Assembly (NCBI GenBank): GCA_037446635.1
Contig: JBBIIG010000005.1
Coordinates: forward strand, 1-64,000
Source: a bacterium
Lineage (GTDB): Bacteria; Zhuqueibacterota; Zhuqueibacteria; Oceanimicrobiales; Oceanimicrobiaceae
DNA: 64,000 nt
Direction of reading: 5' to 3'
Every line of letters begins with the position of its first letter. Positions within the stretch are counted from its first letter, which is position 1. A program made the translations under genes and the position numbers. This document shows positions 41,449 through 63,127 of the stretch, one piece after another. Below the pieces are notes generated by a model that saw nothing but the letters and a program-made list of their open reading frames with translations, did not search any database and was not told where the DNA came from.

Positions 41449-41650
41449 GATTTTATTTGAACTTGGAGCACTAAATGATTTTCGGCATCACACATCACGA
41501 TAAAAATCGACACGTCAACAAAGAAGCATTTTTGAATTTGGCGCCGGCGCGGTTGGCTGGCAAAGCGGTGAACAGTCTCATCCAGCAAAACATCGCGCTG
41601 GGAACATCCGAGATGAACGTCCCTACTATTGATGATGGCGTGGGACTCGC
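41449..41650 (+). pseudogene. Orphan duplicate of the leader and first ~58 codons of the downstream asnB-like gene
   Basis: GATTTTATTTGAACTTGGAGCACT..ATGATTTTCGGCATCAC is repeated at about 41756 onward. Confidence 0.85.
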
Positions 41651-41780: not shown

Positions 41781-43721
41781 ATGATTTTCGGCATCACCCA
41801 TCACGATAAAAATCGACACGTCAACAAAGAAGCATTTTTGAATCTCGTACCGGCGCGGTTGGCGGGCAAAGCCGTTAGCAGTTTCATTCAGCAAAATATC
41901 GCGCTGGGAGCTTCGGAGATGAACGTCCCCACGATCGATGACGGCGTGGGACTCGCGTTCAGCGCGGATAAGAAAATCGTGGTGGCGGCATCGGGTAATA
42001 TTTTCGCCGCTGCTGAGTTTGCCGGAAGCAAAAATGAACCCGTCGCGCAAACCATTTTGCGGGCGTATCAGTCCGCGGGTGAAAACGGCTTCAAACATCT
42101 TAACGGACAATTTGCTGCCGCCATCTGGGATTCGACGCAAAACAAATTTCTGCTGGTGCGCGATCACCTCGGCTTCGAGCCACTGTTCTACTACTGGGAT
42201 GGCCAGACCCTCATCTTCAATTCGTTTCTCAGAGATTTGATTCGCCACGAGAATGTGCGCCGCGATTTCAATCATCGCGCCATCCGCAATTACCTGTTGT
42301 TCAATTACAATCCCGGCCTCGAGACGTTTATTCAGAATGTGCGAAAGGTGCGGCCGGGGCACGTGCTGGTTTTGGAGAATGGGAAGGTGGAGGAGAGGAG
42401 GTATTGGAGGCTTTCATACAATACCAGCGGCAACACCCCCCCTAGCCCCCCCTCAAGGGGGGGAATGGAAGTGGGTTCGAAGGGGGGAACTCTAGAAGAT
42501 TACAAAGCGGAGCTACTGCGGCTGACGCGCGACGCCATTCGCATCCGCACGCAGGAGACGGCGTCCGACCCCGGCGCGTTCCTCAGCGGCGGCATGGATT
42601 CCAGCTCGGTGGTGGGACTGCTGAGCGGACTCACCGAGCGGCCCATCCACACTTTTTCCTTTCGCTGCGAGGGCAAGTACGTGGACGAGTCCTACTACGC
42701 GCGAGTGATGGCTAACCATTACAAAACTCGCCATAACGAAATTCCGTTCACCGCCGACGAGCTGCTCAACTTTGAAAAAATGGCCGAGTGGATGGATGAG
42801 CCGCTGTGCGACATCGGCGTGGAGCTGGGGTCGTTCATCATGGGGCGCGCGGCGCAGGGCCATGTTCAGTACATCCTCACCGGCGATGGCGGCGACGAGC
42901 TGTACGCCGGCCACCCGGTGTATCTCGCCGATCAAATGGCCGCGGCGTTCGACAAAATTCCGGCGCCGCTGCGCGCGGGCGTGCTTGGCATCGCGGGGCT
43001 ACTGCCGGATTCCGATAAAAAGAAAAGTCTGTTGGTGAAAGCGCGGCGCTTCGCGTATAGCTACGGTTTCCCCGCGGAGCTGCTGAGCAATCGCTGGCGC
43101 ATTTATTACACCGGCGCGGAGCTGGCGCGTCTTTGCACTCCGGAGGTGGTGCAGCAATTCGGCGATCTCGACTCGTACCGCGATATCACCGATTTGTACG
43201 CCGACGCCGACGGCCCCGACCATCTCAGTCGCGCGCTTTATGGCGATTATCAGACGCTGGTGCATTTCCACGTTGACCGCCTGCGGCTGACCCGCGCATG
43301 GGGCATCGAGGCGCGCTTCCCGCTGCACGATTACCGGCTCGTCGAGTTTTCGGCGACCATTCCGTCGGCGCTGAAGATTCGCCCGCCTGCCTCAGGCCTC
43401 TGGCGGGCAGGCAACTCGCAGGTGAAATACATTCAGCACGAAGCGCTGGCCGGCGTGCTGCCCGATGAAATCGTTTTTCGCAAAAATAAAATGGGTCACA
43501 ATGTGCCGATGAAAAACTGGATGCGGGAAACTACCGTGTTCCGCGATTTGATGAACGACGTACTCTCCGAAACTGCGGTGAAGCGGCGCGGCATGTTCAA
43601 CGCGCCGTTCGTGAAACAGATGCTGGATCTCCATCTCCGAAAGAAAAAGGACTACTCCCATCGCCTCTACGCCCTCGTGATTTTGGAACTCTGGCTCAAG
43701 AAAAACATCGATAATCGATGA
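41781..43721 (+). CDS. Asparagine synthase-related amidotransferase lacking the N-terminal Cys
   Basis: LNGQFA, RDHLG..PLFY, SGGMDSS, GDGGDELYAG, RFPLHD; starts MIFG rather than MCG. Confidence 0.85.
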   Translation: MIFGITHHDKNRHVNKEAFLNLVPARLAGKAVSSFIQQNIALGASEMNVPTIDDGVGLAFSADKKIVVAASGNIFAAAEFAGSKNEPVAQTILRAYQSAGENGFKHLNGQFAAAIWDSTQNKFLLVRDHLGFEPLFYYWDGQTLIFNSFLRDLIRHENVRRDFNHRAIRNYLLFNYNPGLETFIQNVRKVRPGHVLVLENGKVEERRYWRLSYNTSGNTPPSPPSRGGMEVGSKGGTLEDYKAELLRLTRDAIRIRTQETASDPGAFLSGGMDSSSVVGLLSGLTERPIHTFSFRCEGKYVDESYYARVMANHYKTRHNEIPFTADELLNFEKMAEWMDEPLCDIGVELGSFIMGRAAQGHVQYILTGDGGDELYAGHPVYLADQMAAAFDKIPAPLRAGVLGIAGLLPDSDKKKSLLVKARRFAYSYGFPAELLSNRWRIYYTGAELARLCTPEVVQQFGDLDSYRDITDLYADADGPDHLSRALYGDYQTLVHFHVDRLRLTRAWGIEARFPLHDYRLVEFSATIPSALKIRPPASGLWRAGNSQVKYIQHEALAGVLPDEIVFRKNKMGHNVPMKNWMRETTVFRDLMNDVLSETAVKRRGMFNAPFVKQMLDLHLRKKKDYSHRLYALVILELWLKKNIDNR

Positions 43722-44684: not shown

Positions 44685-45047
44685 TGGATTAATGGATTGT
44701 TGGATCAATGGATCAATGTAACAAAGATGTCATTCCGAACCTCGATGCTTTTTATCGGGGTGAGGAATCTGGCGGAGAGCGAAACGTGATATTGCGAAGG
44801 TACTTTGAAAAACGGCAACTCATCCCTCGTGTTCGCTGGGGATTTAAGCCCGCGTGCTCGGCCCGCCAAGGAATCTCCAGCAGAATTAATGGCTGTGGAA
44901 TTATATTCCATGCAGTTGAAGGAGATAAAATCTCAGGCTCATTTATTCCGCGTGGGATTACGTGGAAAAAACGGCGCGGAGCGACAAATCCCACGCGAGC
45001 CGGCGGGCCTTTTCATTGATCCATTAATCCATCAATCCAACGATCCA
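44685..45047. repeat. 8-nt periodic inverted repeat arms (TGGATCAA family) enclosing an insert of about 295 nt
   Basis: TGGATTAATGGATTGTTGGATCAATGGATCAATG ... CATTGATCCATTAATCCATCAATCCAACGATCCA. Confidence 0.8.
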
Positions 45048-45823: not shown

Positions 45824-46807
45824 ATGAGAAAAATGAAGCAACCAGAATACTCCGTCGTAGTCCCTGTGATGAACGAAGAGCAGAACGTCGAAATTCTCTT
45901 CAATCGCATCAACGATGTGCTCAGCCAGATGGGGCGGGAGTATGAGATCATTTTCGTCGATGATGGCAGCAGCGACCGCACGTTCGAGATTTTGAAAGCG
46001 ATTCACGCGCGACACCCGCAGCTCAAGGTGGTGAAGTTCCGCCGCAACTTCGGGCAATCGGCGGCGATGGCCGCGGGCTTCGAACAGGCAAAGGGGCGCA
46101 TTGTGATTTCGATGGACGGCGATCTGCAAAACGATCCTGCGGACATCCCGGCGATGATCAAAAAAATGGATGAGGGCTACGACATCGTCGCGGGCTGGCG
46201 GCGGAATCGGCAGGATAAAATGCTGGTGCGCAAAGTGCCGTCGAAAATTGCCAATCGGCTCATTCGCTATTTTACCGGCGTGCAGTTGCACGACACCGGC
46301 TGCTCGCTGAAAGCGTACCGCTCGGAGGTCATCAAAAAAATTCGGCTGTACGGTGAGCTGCACCGGTTCATCCCGGCGTTGGCGCGAGTGGAGGGCGCGC
46401 GCATTTCGGAAATCGTGGTGGCGCATCACGCCCGCCAATTCGGCCGCTCGAAATACAACTTGACCCGCACCTTCAAAGTGATCATGGATCTCACCACGTT
46501 GAATCTGTTCATCAAATATCTCCACAAGCCGCTGCACTTTTTCGGCGGACTGGCGTTCTGGTTCAACGTGGTCGGGCTGATTTCACTATTCCTGTGTGGC
46601 TATCTGTTTTTCACAAACCGATATGATCTGGCTGGATTGAATGTGTTGATTTCAGTGTCGTTTCTGTGGCTGGCCTCGGGCTGGCAATCGATTTTTTACG
46701 GCCTGATCGCCAACATGGTGGTGAAGACGGGGGATAATCATGATGGCAAGTTGGTTGAAATTTATAACCATAAAGACACAAAGAACACAAAGTTTGAAAA
46801 GCATTAA
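45824..46807 (+). CDS. GT2 polyprenol-phosphate glycosyltransferase (ArnC/DPM synthase-like)
   Basis: PVMNEE, DDGSSD, RNFGQS, MDGDLQNDP, GELHRFIP, two C-terminal TMs. Confidence 0.92.
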   Translation: MRKMKQPEYSVVVPVMNEEQNVEILFNRINDVLSQMGREYEIIFVDDGSSDRTFEILKAIHARHPQLKVVKFRRNFGQSAAMAAGFEQAKGRIVISMDGDLQNDPADIPAMIKKMDEGYDIVAGWRRNRQDKMLVRKVPSKIANRLIRYFTGVQLHDTGCSLKAYRSEVIKKIRLYGELHRFIPALARVEGARISEIVVAHHARQFGRSKYNLTRTFKVIMDLTTLNLFIKYLHKPLHFFGGLAFWFNVVGLISLFLCGYLFFTNRYDLAGLNVLISVSFLWLASGWQSIFYGLIANMVVKTGDNHDGKLVEIYNHKDTKNTKFEKH

Positions 46808-46987
46808 CCACGAAGAACACGAAGGTCACGAAGTTGGAAAAAATATTTTTATCTCAAATTCTAAAAAACTGTTCTTCCACTTTCATGGAGGTTTTTTTCT
46901 TGTGGATTTTCTTCGTGTTCTTCGTGACCTTCGTGGTTCAAAAATTTTAATGGGTTTATTTCTTTGTGACCTTTGTGCCTTTGTGGT
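46767..46987. repeat. Nested 9-nt periodic inverted repeats (outer CACAAAG family, inner CACGAAG family at 46806-46938)
   Basis: ACCATAAAGACACAAAGAACACAAAG / CTTTGTGACCTTTGTGCCTTTGTGGT enclose AACCACGAAGAACACGAAGGTCACGAAG / CTTCGTGTTCTTCGTGACCTTCGTGGTT. Confidence 0.88.
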
Positions 46988-47006
46988 GAATTAAAATTGA
47001 GGATAT

Positions 47007-48041
47007 ATGAAAGAGCAAGTTCTCAGCAGGACTAAACCCTTGGACGGAAAGGCAAACAAGAAAGTCGCGCCAGCTAAAACACTCGCTTCGATCATCGTGG
47101 CGGTGCGGGATTTTGAAGATGACATTCAGAGCGTCTACGCTGGCTTGACAGAGACGTTTACTAAACCTCCGACCTTTACTAAACCTTCGAGGTTTAGTAA
47201 AGGTGAGGGCAGCTACGAGTTCATTTTCGTCGATGATGGCAGCCTCGATGGCACGTGGAATCAATTGAAGAAAATCGCCAATGGCAACGCGGGCGTGAAG
47301 CTCGTGCGGATGCGCACCTCGTTTGGCGAGGCCGCCGCTTTCGATGCGGGACTGAAGCAGGCGGCGGGCGAGAAGATTGTGTTCTTCACCACGCGCGTGC
47401 GCATCAATCCCGCGCAGCTCTCCAAATTGCTGGCGCGCCTCGACGACGGCTGCGATCTGGTGATGGGGTGGCGCCATCCCCGCCGTGACTCGAAACTCAA
47501 CCAGTTTATCTCGAAGGGCTTCAACGCCATCATCCGCTGGATTTCGAAACTGCATTTGCAAGATGTGAACAGCGGCGTGTTTGCGGCGCGGCGCGAGGTT
47601 TTGGAGGACGTCCCCATTTACGGCAACATGAACATCTTCCTGCCGATACTGGCGTCGCGCAAAGGCTACCGCGTCGGCGACGAGCCCATCGAGCAGTTGG
47701 CGGGAAAATTCCGCCAGTCGAAATATGTGTCGGAGTACGTGCAGCGCGTGCTCGATATCGTCACGGTGATTTTTCTCACCAAGTACTCGAAGAAGCCGCT
47801 GCATTTTTTAGGATTTTTGGGATTCATTTTCACCATCGTTGGGCTGGCGATGAACGTGTATTTGTTCATTTATCGCGTGCTGCAGTTCGGCCCGATTGCG
47901 GGACGGCCGCTGCTGCTGTTGGGCGCGCTGCTGCTGGTGATCGGCATTCAGATGATCTCCATCGGCTTGATTGGCGAGATGATCATTTTCACCCACGCGC
48001 GGGAGATTAAGGAGTACACGATTGAGGAGATTTTGGAGTGA
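47007..48041 (+). CDS. GT2 ArnC-like paralog lacking the DxD motif, with an in-frame palindrome insert
   Basis: DDGSLD is retained; MDGDLQ is replaced by FTTRVR; two C-terminal TMs. Confidence 0.82.
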   Translation: MKEQVLSRTKPLDGKANKKVAPAKTLASIIVAVRDFEDDIQSVYAGLTETFTKPPTFTKPSRFSKGEGSYEFIFVDDGSLDGTWNQLKKIANGNAGVKLVRMRTSFGEAAAFDAGLKQAAGEKIVFFTTRVRINPAQLSKLLARLDDGCDLVMGWRHPRRDSKLNQFISKGFNAIIRWISKLHLQDVNSGVFAARREVLEDVPIYGNMNIFLPILASRKGYRVGDEPIEQLAGKFRQSKYVSEYVQRVLDIVTVIFLTKYSKKPLHFLGFLGFIFTIVGLAMNVYLFIYRVLQFGPIAGRPLLLLGALLLVIGIQMISIGLIGEMIIFTHAREIKEYTIEEILE

Positions 48042-48140
48042 TTGGTTGGCACACGGATGACGCGGATTGGACGGATAGGGACGGATTTTAAAACTCGGGA
48101 ACGAGAGAGAATTTGTGATTTTGTAGGAGTTCCTTCTAAA

Positions 48141-48246
48141 CTGTCATTTCGAGCTGAGCGCAGCGAAGCGAGAAATCTGACATAGCACAAATCTGTGTAC
48201 CGCCAGATTTCTCATCCCGTAAAAAGCACGGGATTCGAAATGACAG
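48141..48246. repeat. GTCATTTCG...CGAAATGAC palindromic element
   Basis: CTGTCATTTCGA..GAGAAATCTG..CAGATTTCTC..TCGAAATGACAG. Confidence 0.85.
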
Positions 48247-48327
48247 GGGGAGAGAGGTTGATTGGCGAGATGATCGTTTTCGTCTAATGTAGTAGATCAA
48301 AAAATAGGCTATTGGAGATTTTGGACC

Positions 48328-48930
48328 ATGAAAATTGGTGAGCATCTTTATTTTTCTCCGAATTATAAATTCACAGAACTGAGATGGGATGACAAAAGCA
48401 ATCTGATACCCGCCTTTCAAGATAGAGTAACAGGATTTTATTTGGATCCAGTAGATCAACTTAATAATACTATTAGTTCTTTTGCTGCGGGAGTTTTGTG
48501 TGTAACAACAATTGATTTTTTAGCTGCTATTACTACGGGAATTCAGAAAACGGGAGTAAGAATTGAGAACTGGCTCAAATCGAATATCTCTACTTTCGAT
48601 AAAATTGATCCTAACAACAAATCGCAAACTCTCGCTCGAAGGTTTTATAATGAATTTCGAAATGGGTTAGTTCATGAAGGCCGTATCAAAGAAGGTGGTC
48701 AGTTCTCATATGATTTTGAAGAACTTGTCCAAGTTGAGGAATCAGTAATGGTTGTAAATCCCATGCTGCTTGCCACTGCCATCCGCGAAGCTTTTAAAAA
48801 GTATATAGAAAAGGTGAAAACGGACGAATTTGCTTTTCAATCTTTCAAAGCCTCCATAATTCAATTCTTCAGAGTGGATATTGAAATTGTTAAACCTAAA
48901 AACACTATGGTTCAGAATAGGCAGCAATGA
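48328..48930 (+). CDS. Hypothetical protein with a HEPN-like RxxxxH motif
   Basis: 200-aa AT-rich ORF containing FRNGLVHE. Confidence 0.65.
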   Translation: MKIGEHLYFSPNYKFTELRWDDKSNLIPAFQDRVTGFYLDPVDQLNNTISSFAAGVLCVTTIDFLAAITTGIQKTGVRIENWLKSNISTFDKIDPNNKSQTLARRFYNEFRNGLVHEGRIKEGGQFSYDFEELVQVEESVMVVNPMLLATAIREAFKKYIEKVKTDEFAFQSFKASIIQFFRVDIEIVKPKNTMVQNRQQ

Positions 48931-48931
48931 T

Positions 48932-49852
48932 ATGAAAAACACAATTCCGAATTTAGTATTTTTTGGTGGGAGTATTTTGTTTGTTATTTTCATTAGGACA
49001 GTGGATTTGAGCTTTGGAGGCTTATTTTTTTCCATTACACTCTTCTTAATTGCAATTGTAGTATTTTTCATGAAATATTTGAAAAGGGAAGAAGAGAAAT
49101 TTGATGCTCGAGTTAATAATCTTCTAAGTAAGATTACAGAATTCAATGCTACTCAGAAATATTTGAATTTGGCTTCAGAGTCAGGGATAGCAGTTGATGA
49201 AGCTTCAAACAAACTTTGTTTCTTCGAAAAAAAGAATGAGAGTTTGCAACCTTATATTTATAGTTACAACCAACTCGTCGAATGCGAGCTTGTCGAGGAC
49301 GGGGATACCGTAACTAAGACCTCTCGTGCCAGTCAACTTGGTGGAGCATTGGTTGGCGGGTTAATAGCTGGTGGTGTTGGTACTATCGTTGGTGGCCTTT
49401 CTGGTAAGCGGAAAAGTCTTCAAAAGGTAAGGCGGGTCGATTTAAAAATCATAGTAAATGACACAAGAAAACCAGTGCACATACTTAACTTTTTTGATTA
49501 TGAAACAGAAAAAGGTAGCATACAATACCAAAATGTAATGGCGAAGGCAAATCATTGGTATGGTTTAATAAGCGTATATATAAAACGAGCGGAGCAAGAA
49601 TCCAAATTGATAGAAAAAGTGAGTTCCTTCCGCTGCTCAAACTGTGGCGAGCAGATCGAGCGCGGTTGGCAACATTGTATCAAGTGCGGCGCGTCCGTGA
49701 GTTTATCACGCGATTCTACCGAGACTATTTCCAAAAATCCTTCATATTCTGTGGCTGATGAATTAGCAAAGCTTGTTGAGCTACGAAAAAATGGAACTCT
49801 CACACATGAGGAGTTCATTGCTCTAAAACAAAAGCTACTTTCACAGGGATAG
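48932..49852 (+). CDS. Membrane protein with zinc ribbon and C-terminal SHOCT domain
   Basis: Two N-terminal TMs, Gly-rich GGALVGGLIAGGVG, CSNC..CIKC, ADELAKLVELRKNGTLTHEEF..LKQKLL. Confidence 0.8.
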   Translation: MKNTIPNLVFFGGSILFVIFIRTVDLSFGGLFFSITLFLIAIVVFFMKYLKREEEKFDARVNNLLSKITEFNATQKYLNLASESGIAVDEASNKLCFFEKKNESLQPYIYSYNQLVECELVEDGDTVTKTSRASQLGGALVGGLIAGGVGTIVGGLSGKRKSLQKVRRVDLKIIVNDTRKPVHILNFFDYETEKGSIQYQNVMAKANHWYGLISVYIKRAEQESKLIEKVSSFRCSNCGEQIERGWQHCIKCGASVSLSRDSTETISKNPSYSVADELAKLVELRKNGTLTHEEFIALKQKLLSQG

Positions 49853-49888
49853 ATCTTCAGGGCATTAAGAAGAGAAATACAGGAGTAC

Positions 49889-50530
49889 ATGATGAGAACC
49901 GAGGATATTCTTGAGTGCAATCAGAAATCAATTTTAATAGTGGAAAAAAGGAGTTTAAAGGAAATTGTAGTGGCTGCACCTCACCATGCTCCGTTGGGTA
50001 CTTCTGAACTGCCATGTGATAGCCATCGTGTTGCTGACGAAAATGTTGGGTTTTTAGCATTGTATATTGCAAAGCTAATAAACTGCAATAGTATTATTGC
50101 CTGCAATTATTTTATAGATCCTAATAAGCTGGAAAATAGTGACTATTTTCAACGAATAAAAAGTTGGCATCCCAAAATTCTTGTCGAGATTCATGGGCAT
50201 GGAGGGAAAAAAGCGAAGTATGATATCGAAATATCCTCGGGAAGCCTTGACAGAAATAGATTTTCAACTTCATTGGCTGAAAAGTTGAAGGCAAACGTAT
50301 CGAATCTAATTCCACTTCAAAAGTTTGTCATATCGGGAGATTTTAGTGAAATTTATTTTAAGGCGGAAAGAAGTAAAACAATTACTTCAAATGATTGGAT
50401 TGCCTTTCACATTGAGCTACCAATGTCCTTACGTTCGGAAAAAAGTCTTTATCTTCCATTCTGTGAAAAATTATCCGAGGTAGTCAAGGAAATGCTCTTA
50501 GATTATGAGAAGGAAGGGAAACAGCCATAG
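49889..50530 (+). CDS. Hypothetical protein, possible Zn-dependent hydrolase (N-formylglutamate amidohydrolase / poly-gamma-glutamate hydrolase-like fold)
   Basis: APH..DE, EIHG, HIEL..LR motifs. Confidence 0.55.
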   Translation: MMRTEDILECNQKSILIVEKRSLKEIVVAAPHHAPLGTSELPCDSHRVADENVGFLALYIAKLINCNSIIACNYFIDPNKLENSDYFQRIKSWHPKILVEIHGHGGKKAKYDIEISSGSLDRNRFSTSLAEKLKANVSNLIPLQKFVISGDFSEIYFKAERSKTITSNDWIAFHIELPMSLRSEKSLYLPFCEKLSEVVKEMLLDYEKEGKQP

Positions 50531-50539
50531 AAGATTGGT

Positions 50540-51208
50540 ATGAAACAGAAGGTGCTTTCAACAGTTATGCATGAATGGTTGCGAGTTAACAAATACTCTG
50601 AGGCCATATCATCAATTGAAATGATGGCCGAACAATCAGAACGTCTAAGTTCCGATCCTTATCGATGGAAATGGTTTATCATTTCACTACATAATACGCT
50701 TCAATGCTTTATGGTCCTAGCTTTACACAAATTGAATCCCCTGCCTATTTTGAAAAAGAAGGACGTAGAGAAATGGCTTAGGGCATATCACGAGCAGTCA
50801 GACAAGATGAATCATTATGAGTTGGATTCTTTTAGAAACTTATATAAAAAAATAAAGAATCAGGACAATAGTGGTTACAATTTGAAGGTTCGATTCTATC
50901 AACCAATCGACACTGAAGATTGGAGCGTAGAAAGACTTAATGAATATCGAAACATCTTTACCCATTTCATTCCTTGTGGTATGTCCTTGAGCATTGCAAA
51001 CTTGATCAGAGTAGGTTCCGACTCTCTTGGCATTATCAAACATCTTGGTTGGGATACGGACAGAATCAAACTTGCAAGAGGCGATTCTCAAAGAGCACGG
51101 GACGCAATAAATAAAGCGATCTTCAACATCAACAAACTAATTGATCAGTATCAACTCAAAGTGATCAAACAAGAACTAATCGAGGACGAATCGTTTACCG
51201 TGAGATAG
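50540..51208 (+). CDS. Hypothetical protein with a HEPN-like RxxxxH motif
   Basis: 222-aa AT-rich ORF containing LNEYRNIFTHF. Confidence 0.62.
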   Translation: MKQKVLSTVMHEWLRVNKYSEAISSIEMMAEQSERLSSDPYRWKWFIISLHNTLQCFMVLALHKLNPLPILKKKDVEKWLRAYHEQSDKMNHYELDSFRNLYKKIKNQDNSGYNLKVRFYQPIDTEDWSVERLNEYRNIFTHFIPCGMSLSIANLIRVGSDSLGIIKHLGWDTDRIKLARGDSQRARDAINKAIFNINKLIDQYQLKVIKQELIEDESFTVR

Positions 51209-51325
51209 TATCACAAAATGTGACACCACATCGCAATCATAAAAAATTGACGAGGCAAAAAAATATTCGGTGTCAATCCGTTAAACCCGTGTCATCCGTG
51301 TTCTATTATTTAGAGAAAAAATAAA

Positions 51326-52321
51326 GTGAAGCTCATCATCCAAATACCCTGTTTGAACGAAGAAAAAACCCTGCCGCAGACCATCGGCGATCTGCCCAAG
51401 TCCATTGCGGGCGTCGATGAGATCGAGGTGCTGATCATCGACGATGGCAGCAGCGACCGCACGGTGGACGTGGCGCGACAGTTGGGTGTAAACCATATCG
51501 TCCGCCACACCAACAACAAAGGACTGGCCGAGGCCTTCATGAACGGCATCGATGCCTGTTTGAAACTGGGCGCCGACATCATCGTCAACACCGACGCCGA
51601 CAACCAGTACAGCGGGGGGAGCATCCCCGACCTCGTGCGCCCGATCCTCGACTCCAAAGCCGACATGGTGATCGGCGACCGCCAGATCAACGGCATCCCG
51701 CATTTTTCCTTTCTCAAAAAGCGGCTGCAGAATTTGGGCAGCTGGGTGGTGCGCCACGTTTCGGACACCAACATCCCCGACACCACCAGCGGCTTCCGCG
51801 CCTTCAGTCGCGAGGCGGCGCTGCGCATGAACGTGGTTTCGAAATTCACGTACACCCTCGAGACCATCATCCAGGCGGGCAAAAACAACATCGCCATCAC
51901 CCACGTGCCCGTCAGCACCAACGCCAAGACGCGCGACTCGCGGCTGTTCCGCAGCATCCCCAATTACGTGAAGCGCTCGCTCGCCACCATTTTGCGCATC
52001 TACACCATGTACGAGCCGCTGAAAATGTTTTCGATTATCGGCTCGCTGGTGTTCAGCGGCGGCCTGCTGCTCTCGCTGCGATTTCTTTATTTTTATTTCA
52101 CGGAGGGCGGCGCCGGCCACATCCAGTCGTTGATTTTTGCCGCGGTGCTGATGCTAATCGGATTTCAGACGGTGATGATTGGTCTGGTGGCGGATTTGAT
52201 TCGCGGCAATCGCCGGTTGATTGAGGATACACAGTATCGGGTGCGGAAGTTGGAGATTGGGAGGTTTTATAAAGAGAAGAAATCAGATGATAAAGACAAG
52301 AAATCAGAGAAAACTTTGTAG
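51326..52321 (+). CDS. GT2 glycosyltransferase (DPM synthase-like)
   Basis: IPCLNEE, DDGSSD, TDADNQY, DTTSGFRA, C-terminal TMs. Confidence 0.92.
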   Translation: MKLIIQIPCLNEEKTLPQTIGDLPKSIAGVDEIEVLIIDDGSSDRTVDVARQLGVNHIVRHTNNKGLAEAFMNGIDACLKLGADIIVNTDADNQYSGGSIPDLVRPILDSKADMVIGDRQINGIPHFSFLKKRLQNLGSWVVRHVSDTNIPDTTSGFRAFSREAALRMNVVSKFTYTLETIIQAGKNNIAITHVPVSTNAKTRDSRLFRSIPNYVKRSLATILRIYTMYEPLKMFSIIGSLVFSGGLLLSLRFLYFYFTEGGAGHIQSLIFAAVLMLIGFQTVMIGLVADLIRGNRRLIEDTQYRVRKLEIGRFYKEKKSDDKDKKSEKTL

Positions 52322-52326
52322 TTCCA

Positions 52327-52710
52327 TGAGATTGCTTCGACTCGCTGAACAGCGCGAGTCTCGCAATGACAGCGCTCGACCTGTCACTGCGAGGCGCTTT
52401 TTGCCGAAGCAGTCCCATGATTGGAGCACCTTCGGAACTCACCCCCTAAATCCCCCTCTCTTAAAAGACAAGAGAGGGGGACTTGAACGGGTCTCGATCT
52501 CTAAGCCCCCTTCTCTTAGCAAGAGAAGGGGGTTGGGGGATGAGTTCGGAAAGCGAGCATGAGTGAATAATCAGATGACAATGACAAGAAAGCACAAAAT
52601 TAGAACTCAGAGCAATGTCATTTCGAACCCCGACGCTTTTTGTCGGGGTGAGAAATCTGGCACTGCACGAATCGTTGCAGACCAGATTTCTCGCTGCGCT
52701 CGAAATGACA
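52327..52710. repeat. Cluster of three palindromic elements (52327-52417, 52435-52547, 52616-52710)
   Basis: GAGATTGCTTCG..GCAATGAC/GTCACTGCG..GAAGCAGTC; CCCCCTCTCTT..AAGAGAGGGGG twice; TGTCATTTCG..CGAAATGACA. Confidence 0.85.
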
Positions 52711-57992: not shown

Positions 57993-60148
57993 AAGCACTG
58001 GTAACCGGCGCGGCCGGATTTTTGGGACGCCACATTGTTGAAGTTTTACAGAAGCACAAGTATGAAATCGTGACCGTGGTGCGTCCCACGAGCGATGTGA
58101 GTTTTCTCAGAGAAAGAAACGTGCGCATGATTGACGGCGATCTGCGCGATCCCAAAGTTCTCGCAAAAGCCGCCAAAGGTGTGGATGTGATCGTGCACGC
58201 CGCGGCGGCGCTGCGCGGCAGGTGGGAGGATTTCAACGAAATCAACGTCGAGGCGACGCGCCATTTGCTGGAGATAGCACTTCAAGAAAAGGTACAGCGA
58301 TTCGTTTTCATCAGCTCGATCATCGTTTACGATCACACCTCGGCGAAGGCGGGACACACCTTTCGCGAGGACATGCCCTACGAGGAGAAGCAGCAGACGT
58401 TTTACTGCAAAACAAAAATCGCGGGGGAGAAGCTGGTACAGCAGTATCACGAAAAAGGTTTGGCGACGACCATCATTCGCCCCGGCGCGCTCTATGGCAA
58501 GCACGGTCCGATGTTCATGTCGCGACTCGGCATGCCCCTCGGCAGCAATCGTTATCTGATTGTTGGCAACGGAAAATTGCCGTTGCCACTTTCGCACGTG
58601 GAAACGGTGGCCGAAGCGGTCTGGCTGGCGATTTCAAAAAAGGAAGCAATCGGTCAAATTTACAACGCCGTCGAAAGCGATACCCTCACGCAGCGTGAAT
58701 TTTTCGCGCAAGTTCGCCAGCATGTGAAACCGAAATTTTCCACCATTCGTGTACCGCTGCCGGTGATGAACTTCATGGCGATTTGTCTCGACAAATTATT
58801 GGGACTGGCGAAAATGAAATCGCCACTGAGTTTGTCGCAGATCCGACTTTGGGCCACGCCGTTTTTTTATTCAAATGAAAAAATCAGAACAGAGCTCAAC
58901 TGGCAGCCGGCAGATGTTCCCGCCACCGTGCGCGATATGCTTATTTGGAATAAGCAGAAAACACAGCCGAAGCGGAATCCGCCGGGCAACAAAATTAACG
59001 TTGCGATCAATTCCGACAAACAAGTTCGCGTCGGTGTAATTGGATGCGGCGTGATCTCCGGTCCGCATCTCGCTGCGCTGAGTCGCATCAAAAACGCTGT
59101 GGTCGCAGCCGTGAGCGATCCCGTTGAAACCGCGCGCGAAACAATGGCGAAAAAGTACAGCGTCATGAAATCGTATTCCAATTACAAAGAGATGCTGGAA
59201 AACGAAAAGCTGGACGCAGTGCACGTGTGCACGCCATCGCAGAGTCATGCCGAGATCAGCATCGCGGCGATGAATTGCGGCTGCCACGTGTTTGTGGAAA
59301 AACCGTTCGCGCTGACTGCCGCTGAAGCCAAGCGCATGTTGGCCTCTGCGAAAAAGAACAACGTGCTGCTCTGCGTCGATCACAATCACCTCTTCGACGA
59401 AGTGATGGTGAAAGCGCGCGCGATCATCGCCAGCGGCGCACTTGGTCGCGTCTCGTACGTGGAAAGCTGGTACGGCACCTCGTACAGTTCTGACGCCGGC
59501 AGCCGCTACCTGACGTGGGAGGGCCGCAACAACTGGGCGTACAACATGCCCGGCTCGCTTTATCAAAATTTCATCTCCCATCCCATCGCGCTCTTGTTGG
59601 ATGTGATGGGCGACGCGCGCGTGCACGGCGTGCAGGGGAAATTCAATCGCATCGTTCCCCACATGAAAACCGACGAGCTGCGGGTGATGCTCGAAAACGA
59701 AACCATGCTCGGCCTGCTCAGCATGTCGATGGCGGTTTCGCCGCGCTATTTGTTCGTGAATGTTTATGGCACCGCCGCCACGCTGAAGATCGATTTCCTC
59801 AACAAGTACGTTTTTCTCGACAAGCCCGCCGCGAAGCTGCCGCGCGTGGTGAGCCGCAGTCTCAGCGCCATGAAACAGGCGCGCATCATTTTTAGCTCGG
59901 GAATGAAAAACACGGTGCTCGGTTTGCTCGGAAAATACAACATGTATCAGGGCAATGAGACGCTCATTCGGCTATTTTACAAAAGCATCCTCGATGGCGA
60001 TCCGCTGCCCATCGCGCCGGAGGAAGGAGTACGCTCGATGGAAGTGATGGATGAGATTTGGACGAAGCTCGCCACCAGCAATGGCGCGTCTTCGTTAGCC
60101 AAAGTGCCGGTGAAGGGCAAGAAAACTTCGATGACCAAAGAGGATTAA
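57989..60148 (+). CDS. Fusion of an NAD-dependent epimerase (extended SDR) and a Gfo/Idh/MocA oxidoreductase
   Basis: TGAAGFLG and YCKTK in the N half; VGVIGCG, CTP..SH and VEKP in the C half. Confidence 0.88.
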   Translation: MKALVTGAAGFLGRHIVEVLQKHKYEIVTVVRPTSDVSFLRERNVRMIDGDLRDPKVLAKAAKGVDVIVHAAAALRGRWEDFNEINVEATRHLLEIALQEKVQRFVFISSIIVYDHTSAKAGHTFREDMPYEEKQQTFYCKTKIAGEKLVQQYHEKGLATTIIRPGALYGKHGPMFMSRLGMPLGSNRYLIVGNGKLPLPLSHVETVAEAVWLAISKKEAIGQIYNAVESDTLTQREFFAQVRQHVKPKFSTIRVPLPVMNFMAICLDKLLGLAKMKSPLSLSQIRLWATPFFYSNEKIRTELNWQPADVPATVRDMLIWNKQKTQPKRNPPGNKINVAINSDKQVRVGVIGCGVISGPHLAALSRIKNAVVAAVSDPVETARETMAKKYSVMKSYSNYKEMLENEKLDAVHVCTPSQSHAEISIAAMNCGCHVFVEKPFALTAAEAKRMLASAKKNNVLLCVDHNHLFDEVMVKARAIIASGALGRVSYVESWYGTSYSSDAGSRYLTWEGRNNWAYNMPGSLYQNFISHPIALLLDVMGDARVHGVQGKFNRIVPHMKTDELRVMLENETMLGLLSMSMAVSPRYLFVNVYGTAATLKIDFLNKYVFLDKPAAKLPRVVSRSLSAMKQARIIFSSGMKNTVLGLLGKYNMYQGNETLIRLFYKSILDGDPLPIAPEEGVRSMEVMDEIWTKLATSNGASSLAKVPVKGKKTSMTKED

Positions 60149-61773: not shown

Positions 61774-62328
61774 ATGGACTGGAGTGACTTGATTAAACAA
61801 AACTTTGTTACTGTTATAGCAGTTCTCGGTACCCTGTTAGCTGGATTGGGAAGTGGCTTCTTAGCCTCACTTATTTCAAAAAAGTTTGAGTTAAGAAAAG
61901 CTCGGTTCGAATGGCAAAAAGAATATCAAACTCAAAACCTTGTTCAACCCATTATATCATATATTGACGAGACATTTGCATTAATGGAAAATATTTATTG
62001 GACTGTAATGGAAATCAAATGGCAGGTTAGTGAACACAAAGCGGAAGACATCGCAGATGAGATATTGGTCAAAGAGCTTGATAAAAACAGAAACAGATTG
62101 ATTTCATTTAGAGAAAAGAAGAGACTAATCAAAGTACGTGTCAGGTGTTTCTATGATGATGAACTTAACCATGCCTTTGATGAGTTTATGAAAAAGTATG
62201 GTGAGTTTGCAAATCTTAACTTTTTGAATAATACATCTATCATGTTCAATAAAATACAGGAGGCAGTACCATTTGCAACGACAATATTCTCTAGATTGAA
62301 TTATGGACTAGAGAAACTACTTAATTGA
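61774..62328 (+). CDS. Hypothetical AT-rich protein with an N-terminal TM
   Basis: 184-aa ORF with GGAG RBS. Confidence 0.6.
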   Translation: MDWSDLIKQNFVTVIAVLGTLLAGLGSGFLASLISKKFELRKARFEWQKEYQTQNLVQPIISYIDETFALMENIYWTVMEIKWQVSEHKAEDIADEILVKELDKNRNRLISFREKKRLIKVRVRCFYDDELNHAFDEFMKKYGEFANLNFLNNTSIMFNKIQEAVPFATTIFSRLNYGLEKLLN

Positions 62329-62346
62329 ATTGTGGCGTCCGAAACA

Positions 62347-62637
62347 CTAAATACGCGATCGCCAGTTTTTAGGATCTCGATGAAGATGCATAACAGCAGT
62401 GATGAGAATGGAGTCAGGTCGGATTTGATAAATCACCCCGTATGGAAAACGCTTGAAGATGCAGCGCCGGGCGCGTTTGGAAAGTGGCGGCCACGCTTTA
62501 GGAAATTGGACGATGCGTTCCAGAGTACGTTTGACCTCTACTTCAAACTCATCGCCGAGGCCTTCGCGTTGGTCGTTATAATAATCAATCGCTTCCTGCA
62601 ATTCGATTTCAGCGACGGTGAGAAACTCGATCTTCAC
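62347..62637 (-). CDS. RelE/ParE-family toxin
   Basis: AEIELQEAIDYY..GLGDEF..RFPYGVIY..AVMHLHRDP. Confidence 0.9.
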   Translation of the reverse strand: MKIEFLTVAEIELQEAIDYYNDQREGLGDEFEVEVKRTLERIVQFPKAWPPLSKRARRCIFKRFPYGVIYQIRPDSILITAVMHLHRDPKNWRSRI

Positions 62638-62642
62638 CGAGA

Positions 62643-62867
62643 CTACTTCCTTCGATTCTTATCGAATACTCGGTGGGCAGGAATCGCTGCTATTTCTCCG
62701 CGCTCGTATGCATCGATGCGATCTTCGACTTCCTCCGCCCACATCTCATCGATTGATTTCGATTGTGGGAATTCGAAGCTCGACAGCAGGCGGTCAATTA
62801 ATTCCGCGCGTTCGTCGGGCGGCAAGGTTAAAGCTTGGGAGAAAATTTGTTCAGCTTGTTCAGACAT
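62643..62867 (-). CDS. Addiction module antitoxin (TIGR02574-like)
   Basis: ALTLPPDERAELIDRLLSS..W.EEVEDRIDAYERG. Confidence 0.88.
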   Translation of the reverse strand: MSEQAEQIFSQALTLPPDERAELIDRLLSSFEFPQSKSIDEMWAEEVEDRIDAYERGEIAAIPAHRVFDKNRRK

Positions 62868-62899
62868 GACGACTGACCTTTCGTTAAAAATGCGTTGAA

Positions 62900-63055: not shown

Positions 63056-63127
63056 ATGAAACTTGCAATCATGGGCATCCGGGGCATCCCGGCAAACTAC
63101 GGTGGATTTGAAACTTTCGCGAATTGA
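63056..63127 (+). pseudogene. Orphan 5' fragment of a DUF1972-type GT4 glycosyltransferase
   Basis: MKLAIMGIRGIPANYGGFETFA followed almost immediately by a stop. Confidence 0.8.

Follow-up and report, generated by a model that had tools for sequence, protein, structure and literature searches.

In this bacterial genome, four AT-rich genes lie inside the loop of an inverted periodic repeat between two glycosyltransferase genes, raising the question of how they came to be there. An earlier note on the window (the whole 64,000-nucleotide stretch of DNA analysed) proposed that the repeat arms capture or exchange gene cassettes by means of an enzyme supplied in trans. The features discussed are the following.

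47007–48041, + strand: GT-A, upstream host gene, GT2 glycosyltransferase (Pfam PF00535)
48051–48087, + strand: left arm, 9–10-nt periodic, CACGGAT subfamily of the GxxExxY-associated repeat
48141–48246, no strand assigned: nested second repeat, a multi-copy hairpin (fold z −7.6)
48256–48325, + strand: displaced, decayed copy of the GT-A 3′ end (52/68 aligned nt identical, in-frame stop)
48328–48930, + strand: ORF1, 200 aa, likely HEPN-type RNase (R-N-G-L-x-H motif)
48932–49852, + strand: ORF2, likely membrane protein with zinc ribbon and C-terminal SHOCT (Pfam, sub-cut-off)
49889–50530, + strand: ORF3, likely N-formylglutamate amidohydrolase/poly-gamma-glutamate hydrolase-like (Atlas feature)
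50540–51208, + strand: ORF4, likely HEPN-type RNase (R-N-x-F-x-H motif)
51267–51301, − strand: right arm, CACGGAT subfamily, reverse complement of the left arm
51326–52321, + strand: GT-B, downstream host gene, GT2 glycosyltransferase (Pfam PF00535)

Arms and layout of the locus

Alignment confirmed the matching arms reported in the earlier note: positions 48051–48085 and 51267–51301 form an inverted pair of 35 nt, 77 % complementary and spaced 3181 nt apart. The enclosed + strand ORFs, of 200, 323 (likely start 48932), 213 and 222 aa, have a GC content of 0.36–0.38 versus 0.55–0.56 in the flanking genes. GT-A also adjoins GT-B in 45 related loci. As the arms hug the neighbouring codons, with the left one beginning ∼10 nt past the GT-A stop and the right one ending ∼25 nt short of the GT-B start, the loop takes up nearly all of the free space in this junction. 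The reported lack of a recombinase was borne out for the 55 main window ORFs (of 189 listed) scanned with Pfam, among which there was no recombinase (including no tyrosine recombinase) or transposase.

We considered whether the island might lie merely by coincidence between two unpaired arms of a common repeat. Partners are indeed missing within 700 nt for 54/111 strong intergenic arms, matches over long range were seen in each of the four orientations (3 inward inverted, 4, 2 and 1), and a partner-like arm was present in 22/333 random 6-kb regions. However, amongst the 100-nt stretches upstream of 2940 genes, the one before GT-B was the top match to the reverse complement of the left arm (score 38, runner-up 34), and being the best of 2940 it indicates that the pairing is more than chance. 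Furthermore, both arms are located at the borders of the island, and in contigs of relatives GT-A is followed by the left arm and GT-B is preceded by the right one. As such, coincidence is a very unlikely explanation.

The similar arms noted elsewhere in the window (36019, 46767, 60140, 62947 and 44685) are all present, and the nearby sites that were folded form hairpins (36015, z −2.6; 60135, z −5.4; 62940, z −6.0). For the 8-nt family, said to occur both empty and filled, the arms at 60140 and 44685 exist; the ∼290 nt inside the pair at 44685–45047, however, are mostly other multi-copy repeats, i.e. a repeat within a repeat, and the ORF they contain has no Pfam match. We therefore rejected this filling as gene cargo.

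Cargo genes between the arms

ORF1 has 156 homologues, and its R-N-G-L-x-H motif is invariant in 28/28 aligned sequences; its structure model (pLDDT 91) resembles several HEPN proteins weakly in fold (Z 5.2–5.8). In ORF4 the R, N and H of the motif are invariant in 13/13 aligned sequences, and the top Foldseek rows were HEPN toxins and Csm6, but at E ≥ 0.26. A conserved R-x4-6-H motif is thus found in both proteins, and HEPN entries recur in the top fold rows of both, yet with Z ≤ 6.0 and E ≥ 0.26. ORF1 and ORF4 are likely to be HEPN RNases. ORF2 matched PF09851 (E 4.8e-6) and PF13248 (E 2.3e-5), both slightly below the cut-off. For ORF3 the Atlas feature score was 0.98, with concordance in 10/10 family-bearing matches. 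Searches against Pfam, NCBIfam and PADLOC families returned nothing over the cut-off for ORF1, ORF3 or ORF4, and the ORF1 profile had no match amongst PDB sequences.

An ORF1 query against 166 other genomes of the phylum found no homologue. The cargo DNA matched the phylum genomes only at ORF4 in G009 and at three bare arms, so its context elsewhere rests on a single locus, where the ORF4 homologue sits after leuS without an arm pair. There were likewise no cargo matches in 80 metagenome loci fetched via GT-B. Within the island no repeat separates ORFs 1–4, and no recombination site follows each cargo gene.

A displaced end of GT-A inside the loop

Two items in the loop had been missed in the earlier note. 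The first is the hairpin at 48141–48246, which has 9–16 further copies and is of a type that, with like ends, flanks a small GIY-YIG gene elsewhere in the genome (contig C4). The second, at 48256–48325, is a decayed copy of the last ∼75 nt of GT-A (from ∼47965). Its 68 aligned nt are unique to the locus, making it a duplication of host sequence longer than 30 bp, and its end supplies the GGAG right before the ORF1 ATG. It lies ∼170 nt inside the left arm, and 215 nt separate the two tails, in a structure of 3.2 kb overall. The GT-A tail scored 44 against the island, a value equalled by one of 2997 other gene tails, and that one matches the nested hairpin and not the displaced copy. A corresponding copy of the GT-B head was not found within the island (score 22).

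With the displaced tail placed in the loop immediately ahead of ORF1, the boundary of the cargo does not coincide with the arms here, and capture or exchange at the arms is not supported. The last ∼75 nt of GT-A, judged from the duplication itself, are likely to have served as a recombination anchor.

The tail copy also bears on whether arms and cargo moved as one, as a composite (MITE-bounded) transposon. The foreign genes are enclosed by inverted ends, as such an element would have them. Nevertheless, the loop contains a piece of the adjoining host gene, the unit occurs only once in this genome and was not found in any of 166 further genomes from the phylum, and no long flanking duplication was found; we regard this origin as highly improbable.

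The arm family and its nuclease genes

The arms belong to a family of inverted tandem 9-nt units placed at gene junctions, which flanks 4/4 genes of this genome for GxxExxY, a PD-(D/E)XK nuclease family (PF13366); the CACGGAT subfamily itself flanks one of them (contig C92). This agrees with the suggested non-autonomous element: the arms form its two ends, and GxxExxY is the gene in the form that carries one. The loops are usually near-empty or occupied by a single small nuclease gene, and they span ≤ 300 nt in 34/41 arm pairs of this genome. One 16-nt arm pattern occurs in an estimated 16,000 or so stretches in GTDB, indicating a widespread family. We found no paper on it in the literature searched, which covered neither subscription journals nor preprint supplements. 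The genome has four matches to PF01797 (RAYT), each with repeats other than these arms.

Listing all arm pairs, as had been proposed, gave long gene-filled loops in 2/41. The second stretched pair with accessory genes, at C7:19397–22826, also contains displaced carA tails, and its cargo begins right behind a decayed arm, itself after a displaced carA tail. A further long pair (C21:23764–29543) was judged to be chance, with a threshold score and housekeeping-like genes inside. Loops > 700 nt were absent among 30 arms from five family relatives, and none > 1 kb was confirmed among 108 arms of a GTDB sample; three such pairs in that sample, all in L103, were discarded, each arm having its own partner 0–2 nt away. 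A strong 9-nt arm is absent from 26/28 AT-rich islands of this genome, and the two islands with one each lie between matched arms that face inward. Displaced gene ends were seen in 5/28 islands. Orphan arms showed no excess facing AT-rich DNA over backing onto it (26/52).

These censuses weigh on the proposal that recombination or capture takes place at the arms and that a trans-acting enzyme swaps cassettes between them. It is consistent with the matched arms that border this island and the one at C7 on both sides, with arm-flanked GxxExxY genes available in trans, and with the different kilobase-size content that follows the same left arm in two metagenome runs, X2 and X5. Against this, a host-tail copy and a second repeat intervene between arm and cargo, no arms lie between individual cargo genes, gene-filled long loops are rare in all three censuses, and the majority of islands have no arms, just as the majority of arm pairs enclose no cargo. 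In addition, the ORF4 homologue in G009 is without arms, a run with the same four cargo genes has another arm type after GT-A, and GxxExxY proteins do not have a known recombinase fold. We consider arm-directed capture distinctly unlikely.

The junction in relatives

As the earlier note had expected, this junction occurs in empty and filled forms. The GT-A/GT-B junction is empty (2–356 nt) in the 45 related loci, which are distant relatives and not strains, and metagenome runs showed its content to be polymorphic among near relatives. Beyond the shared left arm, contigs from X2 and X5 continue with different sequence for 3.2 and 1.9 kb, respectively. The arm type at the junction varies, with a CACAAAG pair in G017, a CACGAAG right arm in G001 and a CACAGAG left arm in runs X1 and X5; in the run with the same four cargo genes, the host-tail contig runs on into a different arm subfamily. 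Coverage of the cargo ORFs was almost nil in runs X2, X3 and X5, a gap that alone shows no absence.

In X5, one contig joins the hairpin end and a G-run to GT-A sequence at 47965, as in the window. In X2, positions 47969–48032 have a depth of 39 versus 16–20 on their neighbours, with two different continuations, which likely reflects two tail copies, although contigs are short and unlinked and strain mixtures could mimic a tail duplication. The X1 GT-A tail shows no differences over 47937–48039 and two over 47850–47964, against 52 over 47209–47964, the gene body being 7 % divergent.

Gene-end copies across the genome

Copies of gene ends are not special to the glycan locus. The last 70 nt were repeated ≤ 1.2 kb downstream (score ≥ 36) for 22/2967 genes, compared with 0/2967 when tails of other genes were used as a control; as an internal-segment control, still including tandem paralogues, gave 14 matches at the same score, this raw count is overstated. 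Amongst 2587 genes, short copies comprised 20 of tails downstream and 11 of heads upstream. Paralogue pairs were removed from the tail-copy list, and a uvrA-like copy (C8:50235) was dropped since it spans an N gap and may be an assembly artefact. Displaced ends thus occur in ∼20 genes, mostly ahead of small toxin–antitoxin (TA)-type genes, with a TA-type family over the cut-off at 10/13 scanned insert loci; most tail-copy inserts contain TA-type genes and neither arm nor hairpin repeat. Other inserts with tail copies are bare palindromes, and no common enzyme was found.

In 20 chosen copies, 167/246 mismatches fell at third codon positions and 155 were synonymous, suggesting that the copies had diverged as working alleles before meeting. 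The GT-A copy differs by 4 synonymous and 12 non-synonymous changes and 2 gaps and is not allele-like, so that for this locus an origin in another strain is inferred from the remaining genomic copies. On the gene side the mismatched bases are evenly spread (A 51, C 66, G 71, T 58); they are not confined to adenines of one copy, and a DGR-like origin was rejected. The competence genes comEC and dprA are intact.

Such copies could also be left by a homing-like process, in which GxxExxY or the GIY-YIG nuclease of the nested hairpin would make a targeted cut within or close to the host tail, and the break would be mended from a donor that contributes a fresh tail together with the element. The newest segment behind the working GT-A tail is exactly the left arm plus the nested hairpin, the joint abuts the hairpin end in X5 as well as in the window, bare palindromes make up some of the small inserts that have tail copies, and the GT-A tail is nearly identical in relatives whose gene body differs by 7 %. 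On the other hand, a long flanking duplication was found at 0/38 arm pairs, TA-type genes with no such repeat make up most tail-copy inserts, head copies exist besides tail copies, and the locus is without a nuclease gene. On balance, homing appears unlikely here.

A possible route of entry

We consider it reasonably probable that the four genes entered by recombination on the GT-A 3′ end, and not through an arm-acting enzyme, the arms being the ends of a gene-less hairpin repeat of the GxxExxY type. Incoming DNA from a relative, likely acquired by natural transformation, would pair at one end with the host gene and be joined illegitimately at the other, as in homology-facilitated illegitimate recombination (HFIR) or ‘insertion with long target duplication’. 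The host gene would stay whole with a new tail, and its old tail and followers would be shifted downstream; the resulting tail repeats could then permit RecA-type swapping or loss of the intervening modules. Here, an allele consisting of GT-A, left arm and nested hairpin would have been joined to the old tail, ORFs 1–4, right arm and GT-B. The outcome would be an integron-like stack with the host gene tail in the role of the att site, and the arms would have spread in a separate step, likely with GxxExxY supplied in trans.

Several observations count against this route. The matched inward arms at both arm-bearing islands, together with the C7 border, are also expected from arm-directed capture; X2 and X5 have kilobase-size alternative content behind the same left arm; and no displaced end was seen in 23/28 islands. 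HFIR has also been reported to occur rarely under laboratory conditions (PMC5361080).

It is also conceivable, albeit rather doubtful, that the GxxExxY/GIY-YIG hairpins act as break generators by stop codons, such that a cut followed by tail-anchored repair draws foreign genes into the loop. If so, arms, nuclease and host tail would form an integrase-free cassette-stacking system across many phyla, and the large GxxExxY family would gain a function.

Comparison with known systems

In integrons (attI/attC/IntI), short accessory genes are stacked at one site, the newest first. The present locus likewise stacks short accessory genes at one site in this order, but has no integrase nearby and no repeat between its four cargo genes, and a host-gene duplication replaces att. 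The description of the system as integron-like and recombinase-free thus holds for the outcome of stacking, and not for arms serving as the capture sites of an enzyme.

In REPIN–RAYT systems (Bertels & Rainey, 2011; PMC3116915), as here, extragenic inverted doublets form hairpins, with many gene-less copies and few that flank a small gene. Unlike REPINs, however, our arms are tandem 9-nt units and not palindromes, the linked gene specifies a PD-(D/E)XK nuclease, GxxExxY, and not an HUH tyrosine transposase, and the RAYT genes of this genome carry other repeats. Insertion of WHO elements at yeast FBA1 replaces the host gene 3′ end (Coughlan et al., 2020; PMC7282813), leaving the old end downstream so that clusters build up, which resembles our locus; in contrast, the insert described here is without an endonuclease gene, many unrelated host genes are involved and head copies occur too. 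Sequential displacement at T6SS effector–immunity and Rhs/CDI loci, for which HFIR was proposed (Kirchberger et al., 2017; PMC5361080), is similar in that a module enters by a conserved anchor and old material shifts downstream, producing an integrase-free, integron-like array; the anchor here is instead a housekeeping or glycan gene of unchanged function, and not a polymorphic toxin.

The features of insertion with long target duplication, described for R-M systems (Furuta et al., 2010; PMC2853133), and of HFIR (PMC3240628) are also found here: an insert < 20 kb, no mobility gene and > 30 bp of duplicated unique host sequence, together with an empty allele that has one target copy in related, if distant, loci. 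Low-GC, defence-type cargo is a further likeness to the former, known cases of which are mostly in competent species (PMC2853133). Unlike in those R-M cases, our cargo also includes TA-type and HEPN-like genes and bare repeats, the copies are gene ends and often diverged alleles, and the event at GT-A is nested in a hairpin repeat. Thus, two things that resembled one system, the arms and the entry of cargo, can now be separated, and the cargo likely entered by a known route. This genome records gene-end entry unusually often and clearly, with ∼20 gene ends, allele-like mismatches and a variable junction, which suggests that ordinary gene ends can serve as standing entry points for TA and defence genes without a mobile-element enzyme.

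An AT-rich island between inverted arms

Between an upstream GT2 glycosyltransferase gene (GT-A, 47007–48041) and a downstream one (GT-B, 51326–52321), both on the + strand, we found four + strand ORFs (ORF1–ORF4) with a GC content of 0.36–0.38, compared with 0.55–0.56 in both GT2 genes. The inverted arms that the earlier note had described ∼3.2 kb apart around these ORFs are present, 3181 nt from one another, with the left arm ∼10 nt past the GT-A stop and the right arm ending ∼25 nt ahead of the GT-B start.

Features of the island
48051–48085, left arm, 35 nt, 77 % complementary to the right arm
48141–48246, nested hairpin of a multi-copy, GIY-YIG-associated type
48256–48325, decayed copy of the GT-A 3′-terminal ∼75 nt (52 of 68 nt identical), after the nested hairpin
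51267–51301, right arm, 35 nt, 77 % complementary to the left arm

Long-range arm matches in the window's own genome (G000) comprised three inward inverted cases versus 4, 2 and 1 in other orientations, a count that alone is not above chance, and a partner-like arm occurred in 22 of 333 random control regions. As the stretch before GT-B was the top match to the reverse complement of the left arm among 100-nt stretches upstream of 2940 genes, the arms were treated as a true pair; that they pair merely by chance is highly improbable. No recombinase was detected among the 55 window ORFs scanned, again as previously noted, and a composite transposon bounded by these arms is extremely improbable.

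ORF1 and ORF4 carry an invariant R-N-x-x-x-H motif and their models weakly match HEPN proteins, so that both are likely, on these predictions, to be HEPN RNases. ORF2 gave zinc-ribbon and SHOCT matches slightly below cut-off, whilst ORF3 probably encodes an amidohydrolase of FGase/poly-gamma-glutamate hydrolase type; the four look like defence-island accessory genes rather than glycan genes. An ORF4 homologue with 79 % DNA identity and an internal stop lies directly after leuS in the related genome G009 (L016:7690–8326, G009:C89), where no arm pair was found. Two further AT-rich ORFs (184 and 188 aa; 61774–62898), without a family match, follow the flippase gene outside any arm pair, and one open reading frame on contig C23 extends over 19 kb and contains internal repeats (G000:C23:40893–60008).

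The arm family and what it encloses

A scan of G000 for three tandem CRCRRAK-like units returned 130 strong arms (111 intergenic), compared with 21 in shuffled sequence. All four GxxExxY (TIGR04256) genes are enclosed by 9-nt arms, those of the gene on contig C92 being of the window's subfamily; the window arms are therefore gene-less ends of this GxxExxY-associated repeat element. Four of five four-helix-bundle genes are clearly enclosed by 7- or 8-nt periodic arms and the fifth weakly, one of the five by the 8-nt family present at 44685 and 60140. Of the small genes that the earlier note had singled out for a genome-wide listing of arm contents, the RAYT and GIY-YIG genes are flanked by other repeats. 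One 16-nt arm pattern gave 125 matching stretches in 1/64 of GTDB, across many bacterial phyla and some archaea, and our literature searches found no paper on the arm family.

At least five repeat families in G000 each occur, at some site, next to a small gene of their own: 9-nt arms (GxxExxY), 7/8-nt arms (four-helix-bundle), hairpins (GIY-YIG) and palindromes (RAYT) are among these pairings. On contig C94, a tRNA-like sequence, the start of which recurs further downstream, is directly followed by a GIY-YIG gene. Two nested 9-nt arm pairs (outer CACAAAG, inner CACGAAG) occupy 46765–46990, and the reading frame of the upstream gene continues through the outer left arm.

Arms rarely carry gene cargo. 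By a conservative threshold, which missed the GxxExxY pair on C31, 41 pairs were found in G000: 34 spanned ≤ 300 nt, four 301–700 nt and three > 700 nt, one of the last enclosing housekeeping-like genes and likely due to chance. Two of the 41 pairs had a long, gene-filled loop. Of 31 matches to the closest subfamily in five family relatives, 30 were retrieved; these arms gave 20 rows of ≤ 300 nt and three of 301–700 nt, seven were partnerless, and no loop was > 700 nt. A GTDB sample of 108 arms with a third unit gave 40 pairs of ≤ 300 nt, two of 301–1000 nt, 31 arms without a partner in ≥ 3 kb and 28 truncated cases; three longer pairs were artefacts of one locus. A strong 9-nt arm occurred at two of 28 AT-rich islands in G000, both bracketed by a matched pair: the GT-A/GT-B locus and C7:19397–22826. 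Additionally, 30 of 38 arm pairs lie ≤ 35 nt from a neighbouring gene on one or both sides, 17 of them on both.

The junction in relatives

Adjacency of GT-A and GT-B was seen in three sets of loci, not all independent: 13 loci with gaps of 3–166 nt, 14 of 80 metagenome loci with gaps of 4–356 nt, and 18 of another 20 loci with gaps of 2–98 nt. Longer gaps often contain repeats whose type varies by relative: G017 has a pair of CACAAAG arms, G007, G014 and G002 carry other hairpins, and in G001 (same genus) a right arm of the CACGAAG type precedes GT-B.

Among metagenome runs with near relatives, a 3412-nt contig from X1 carries all four cargo genes and the GT-B start at ∼88 % identity, matching the window from 48314, whilst the sole X1 contig covering the GT-A tail has no differences over 47937–48039 and then a CACAGAG arm, also present in X5. 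In X2 and X5 the GT-A tail and the window's own left arm lead into different sequence, over 3.2 and 1.9 kb, respectively; in X3 the left arm is interrupted by another hairpin. The empty and filled junctions anticipated in the earlier note were encountered as short gaps and differing content. The contigs from X1, X2, X3 and X5 are unlinked and possibly from mixed strains, and are therefore read as variable content of the junction rather than complete alleles. As cargo identity to X1 (88 %) does not exceed that of flanking genes (90–93 %), the cargo may be an old resident of this junction.

Displaced gene ends inside the loops

ORF1 starts at the position expected for a GT-B start behind the tail copy. 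When scored against the island, only one of 2997 other gene tails reached the score of the GT-A tail, and that one aligns to the nested hairpin. An X5 contig has the window's joint (hairpin end and G-run, then GT-A sequence from 47965), and in X2 depth is doubled over 47969–48032, with two continuations. A short copy of the GT-B 3′ end (52568–52594) follows 247 nt of stacked palindromic repeats.

The C7 island repeats this plan. Ahead of carB, its loop contains a nucleotidyltransferase gene along with two unknown ORFs, in the order several displaced carA tails, repeats including nested hairpins, cargo, right arm, carB (C7:19350–22860, L264); the best tail aligns over 124 nt (score 86, null maximum 40). 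carA and carB are neighbours in all four relatives inspected; the working carA of G000, with its own left arm, is at C5:69666–70742, and the two genes have therefore been separated. The C7 cargo begins directly behind a decayed arm, as capture directed by the arms would have it, but in the window the GT-A tail copy and second hairpin lie between left arm and ORF1. At the GT-A/GT-B locus the arms are thus not the cargo boundary, and arm-directed capture, the earlier note's model, is quite unlikely.

Gene-end copies across the genome

The last 70 nt were repeated ≤ 1.2 kb downstream (score ≥ 36) for 22 of 2967 genes. A control with the tails of other genes gave none, and one with an internal segment, in which paralogues had been left, gave 14. 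Short copies alone numbered 20 tails downstream and 11 heads upstream in 2587 genes, versus 5–10 in each control class, with paralogues in all classes. Between gene and tail copy lie 50–1550 nt holding small gene pairs or bare palindromes. Of 14 loci fetched, 13 were scanned, and ten had families above cut-off: ParE, BrnT/BrnA, TumE, addiction-module, DUF433/DUF5615, DUF4160/DUF2442, UPF0150, DUF2283 or DUF5674, the DUFs presumably having toxin–antitoxin roles. Few inserts contain a 9-nt arm, and a long flanking duplication was found at none of 38 arm pairs.

Twenty copies were chosen by hand, leaving out paralogues and N-gap cases; of their 246 mismatches, 167 were at third positions and 63 % were synonymous. 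Most copies therefore diverged as working alleles in different lineages, pointing to lateral recombination; the GT-A tail copy is an exception, decayed without third-position bias. The allele-like mismatches rule out duplication in place, and their lack of adenine bias rules out a DGR origin.

Small toxin–antitoxin-type pairs lie between host gene and diverged tail copy on C46, C13, C42, C61, C8, C18, C28, C1, C3, C29, C4, C11 and C36 (L250–L263), often with additional small genes downstream. A GT1 glycosyltransferase gene has two displaced 5′ ends (window 63056–63121, C5:63134–65616, C5:∼65821–65909, C5:66552), a head-anchored version of the tail-copy scar; they enclose a gene for a type II restriction enzyme, its large partner gene and a pair of DUF433/DUF5615 genes. 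The asparagine-synthase-like gene at 41781 has its 5′ end copied over 176 nt (41475–41650), next to a large inverted hairpin repeat (39010–39114/41317–41421) bracketing a 613-aa gene.

Proposed route and comparison with known systems

The GT-A/GT-B junction is a real, variable insertion site within a repeat element, and insertion was probably anchored on the tail of the host gene. The cassette system proposed earlier is supported in part: it is variable, recombinase-free and integron-like in outcome, but its anchor is probably the host gene tail, not the arms. From the observed geometry, tail copy, common joint, recurrence, allele-like divergence and intact comEC and dprA, we infer a route of uptake, pairing and illegitimate joining. 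One end of DNA from a relative would pair with the host gene and the other would be joined illegitimately, so that the incoming neighbours come to lie between a working gene and a displaced gene end; modules could stack through repeated rounds, and tail repeats would permit later swapping. As arm pairs hug gene ends, any insertion into an occupied junction would end up inside the loop. That a nuclease sets off such repair, in the manner of WHO elements (PMC7282813), is unlikely.

Integration with one homologous and one illegitimate end has been put forward as a model for T6SS immunity arrays (PMC5361080), and in the case of R-M systems the same pattern is named insertion with long target duplication (PMC2853133).
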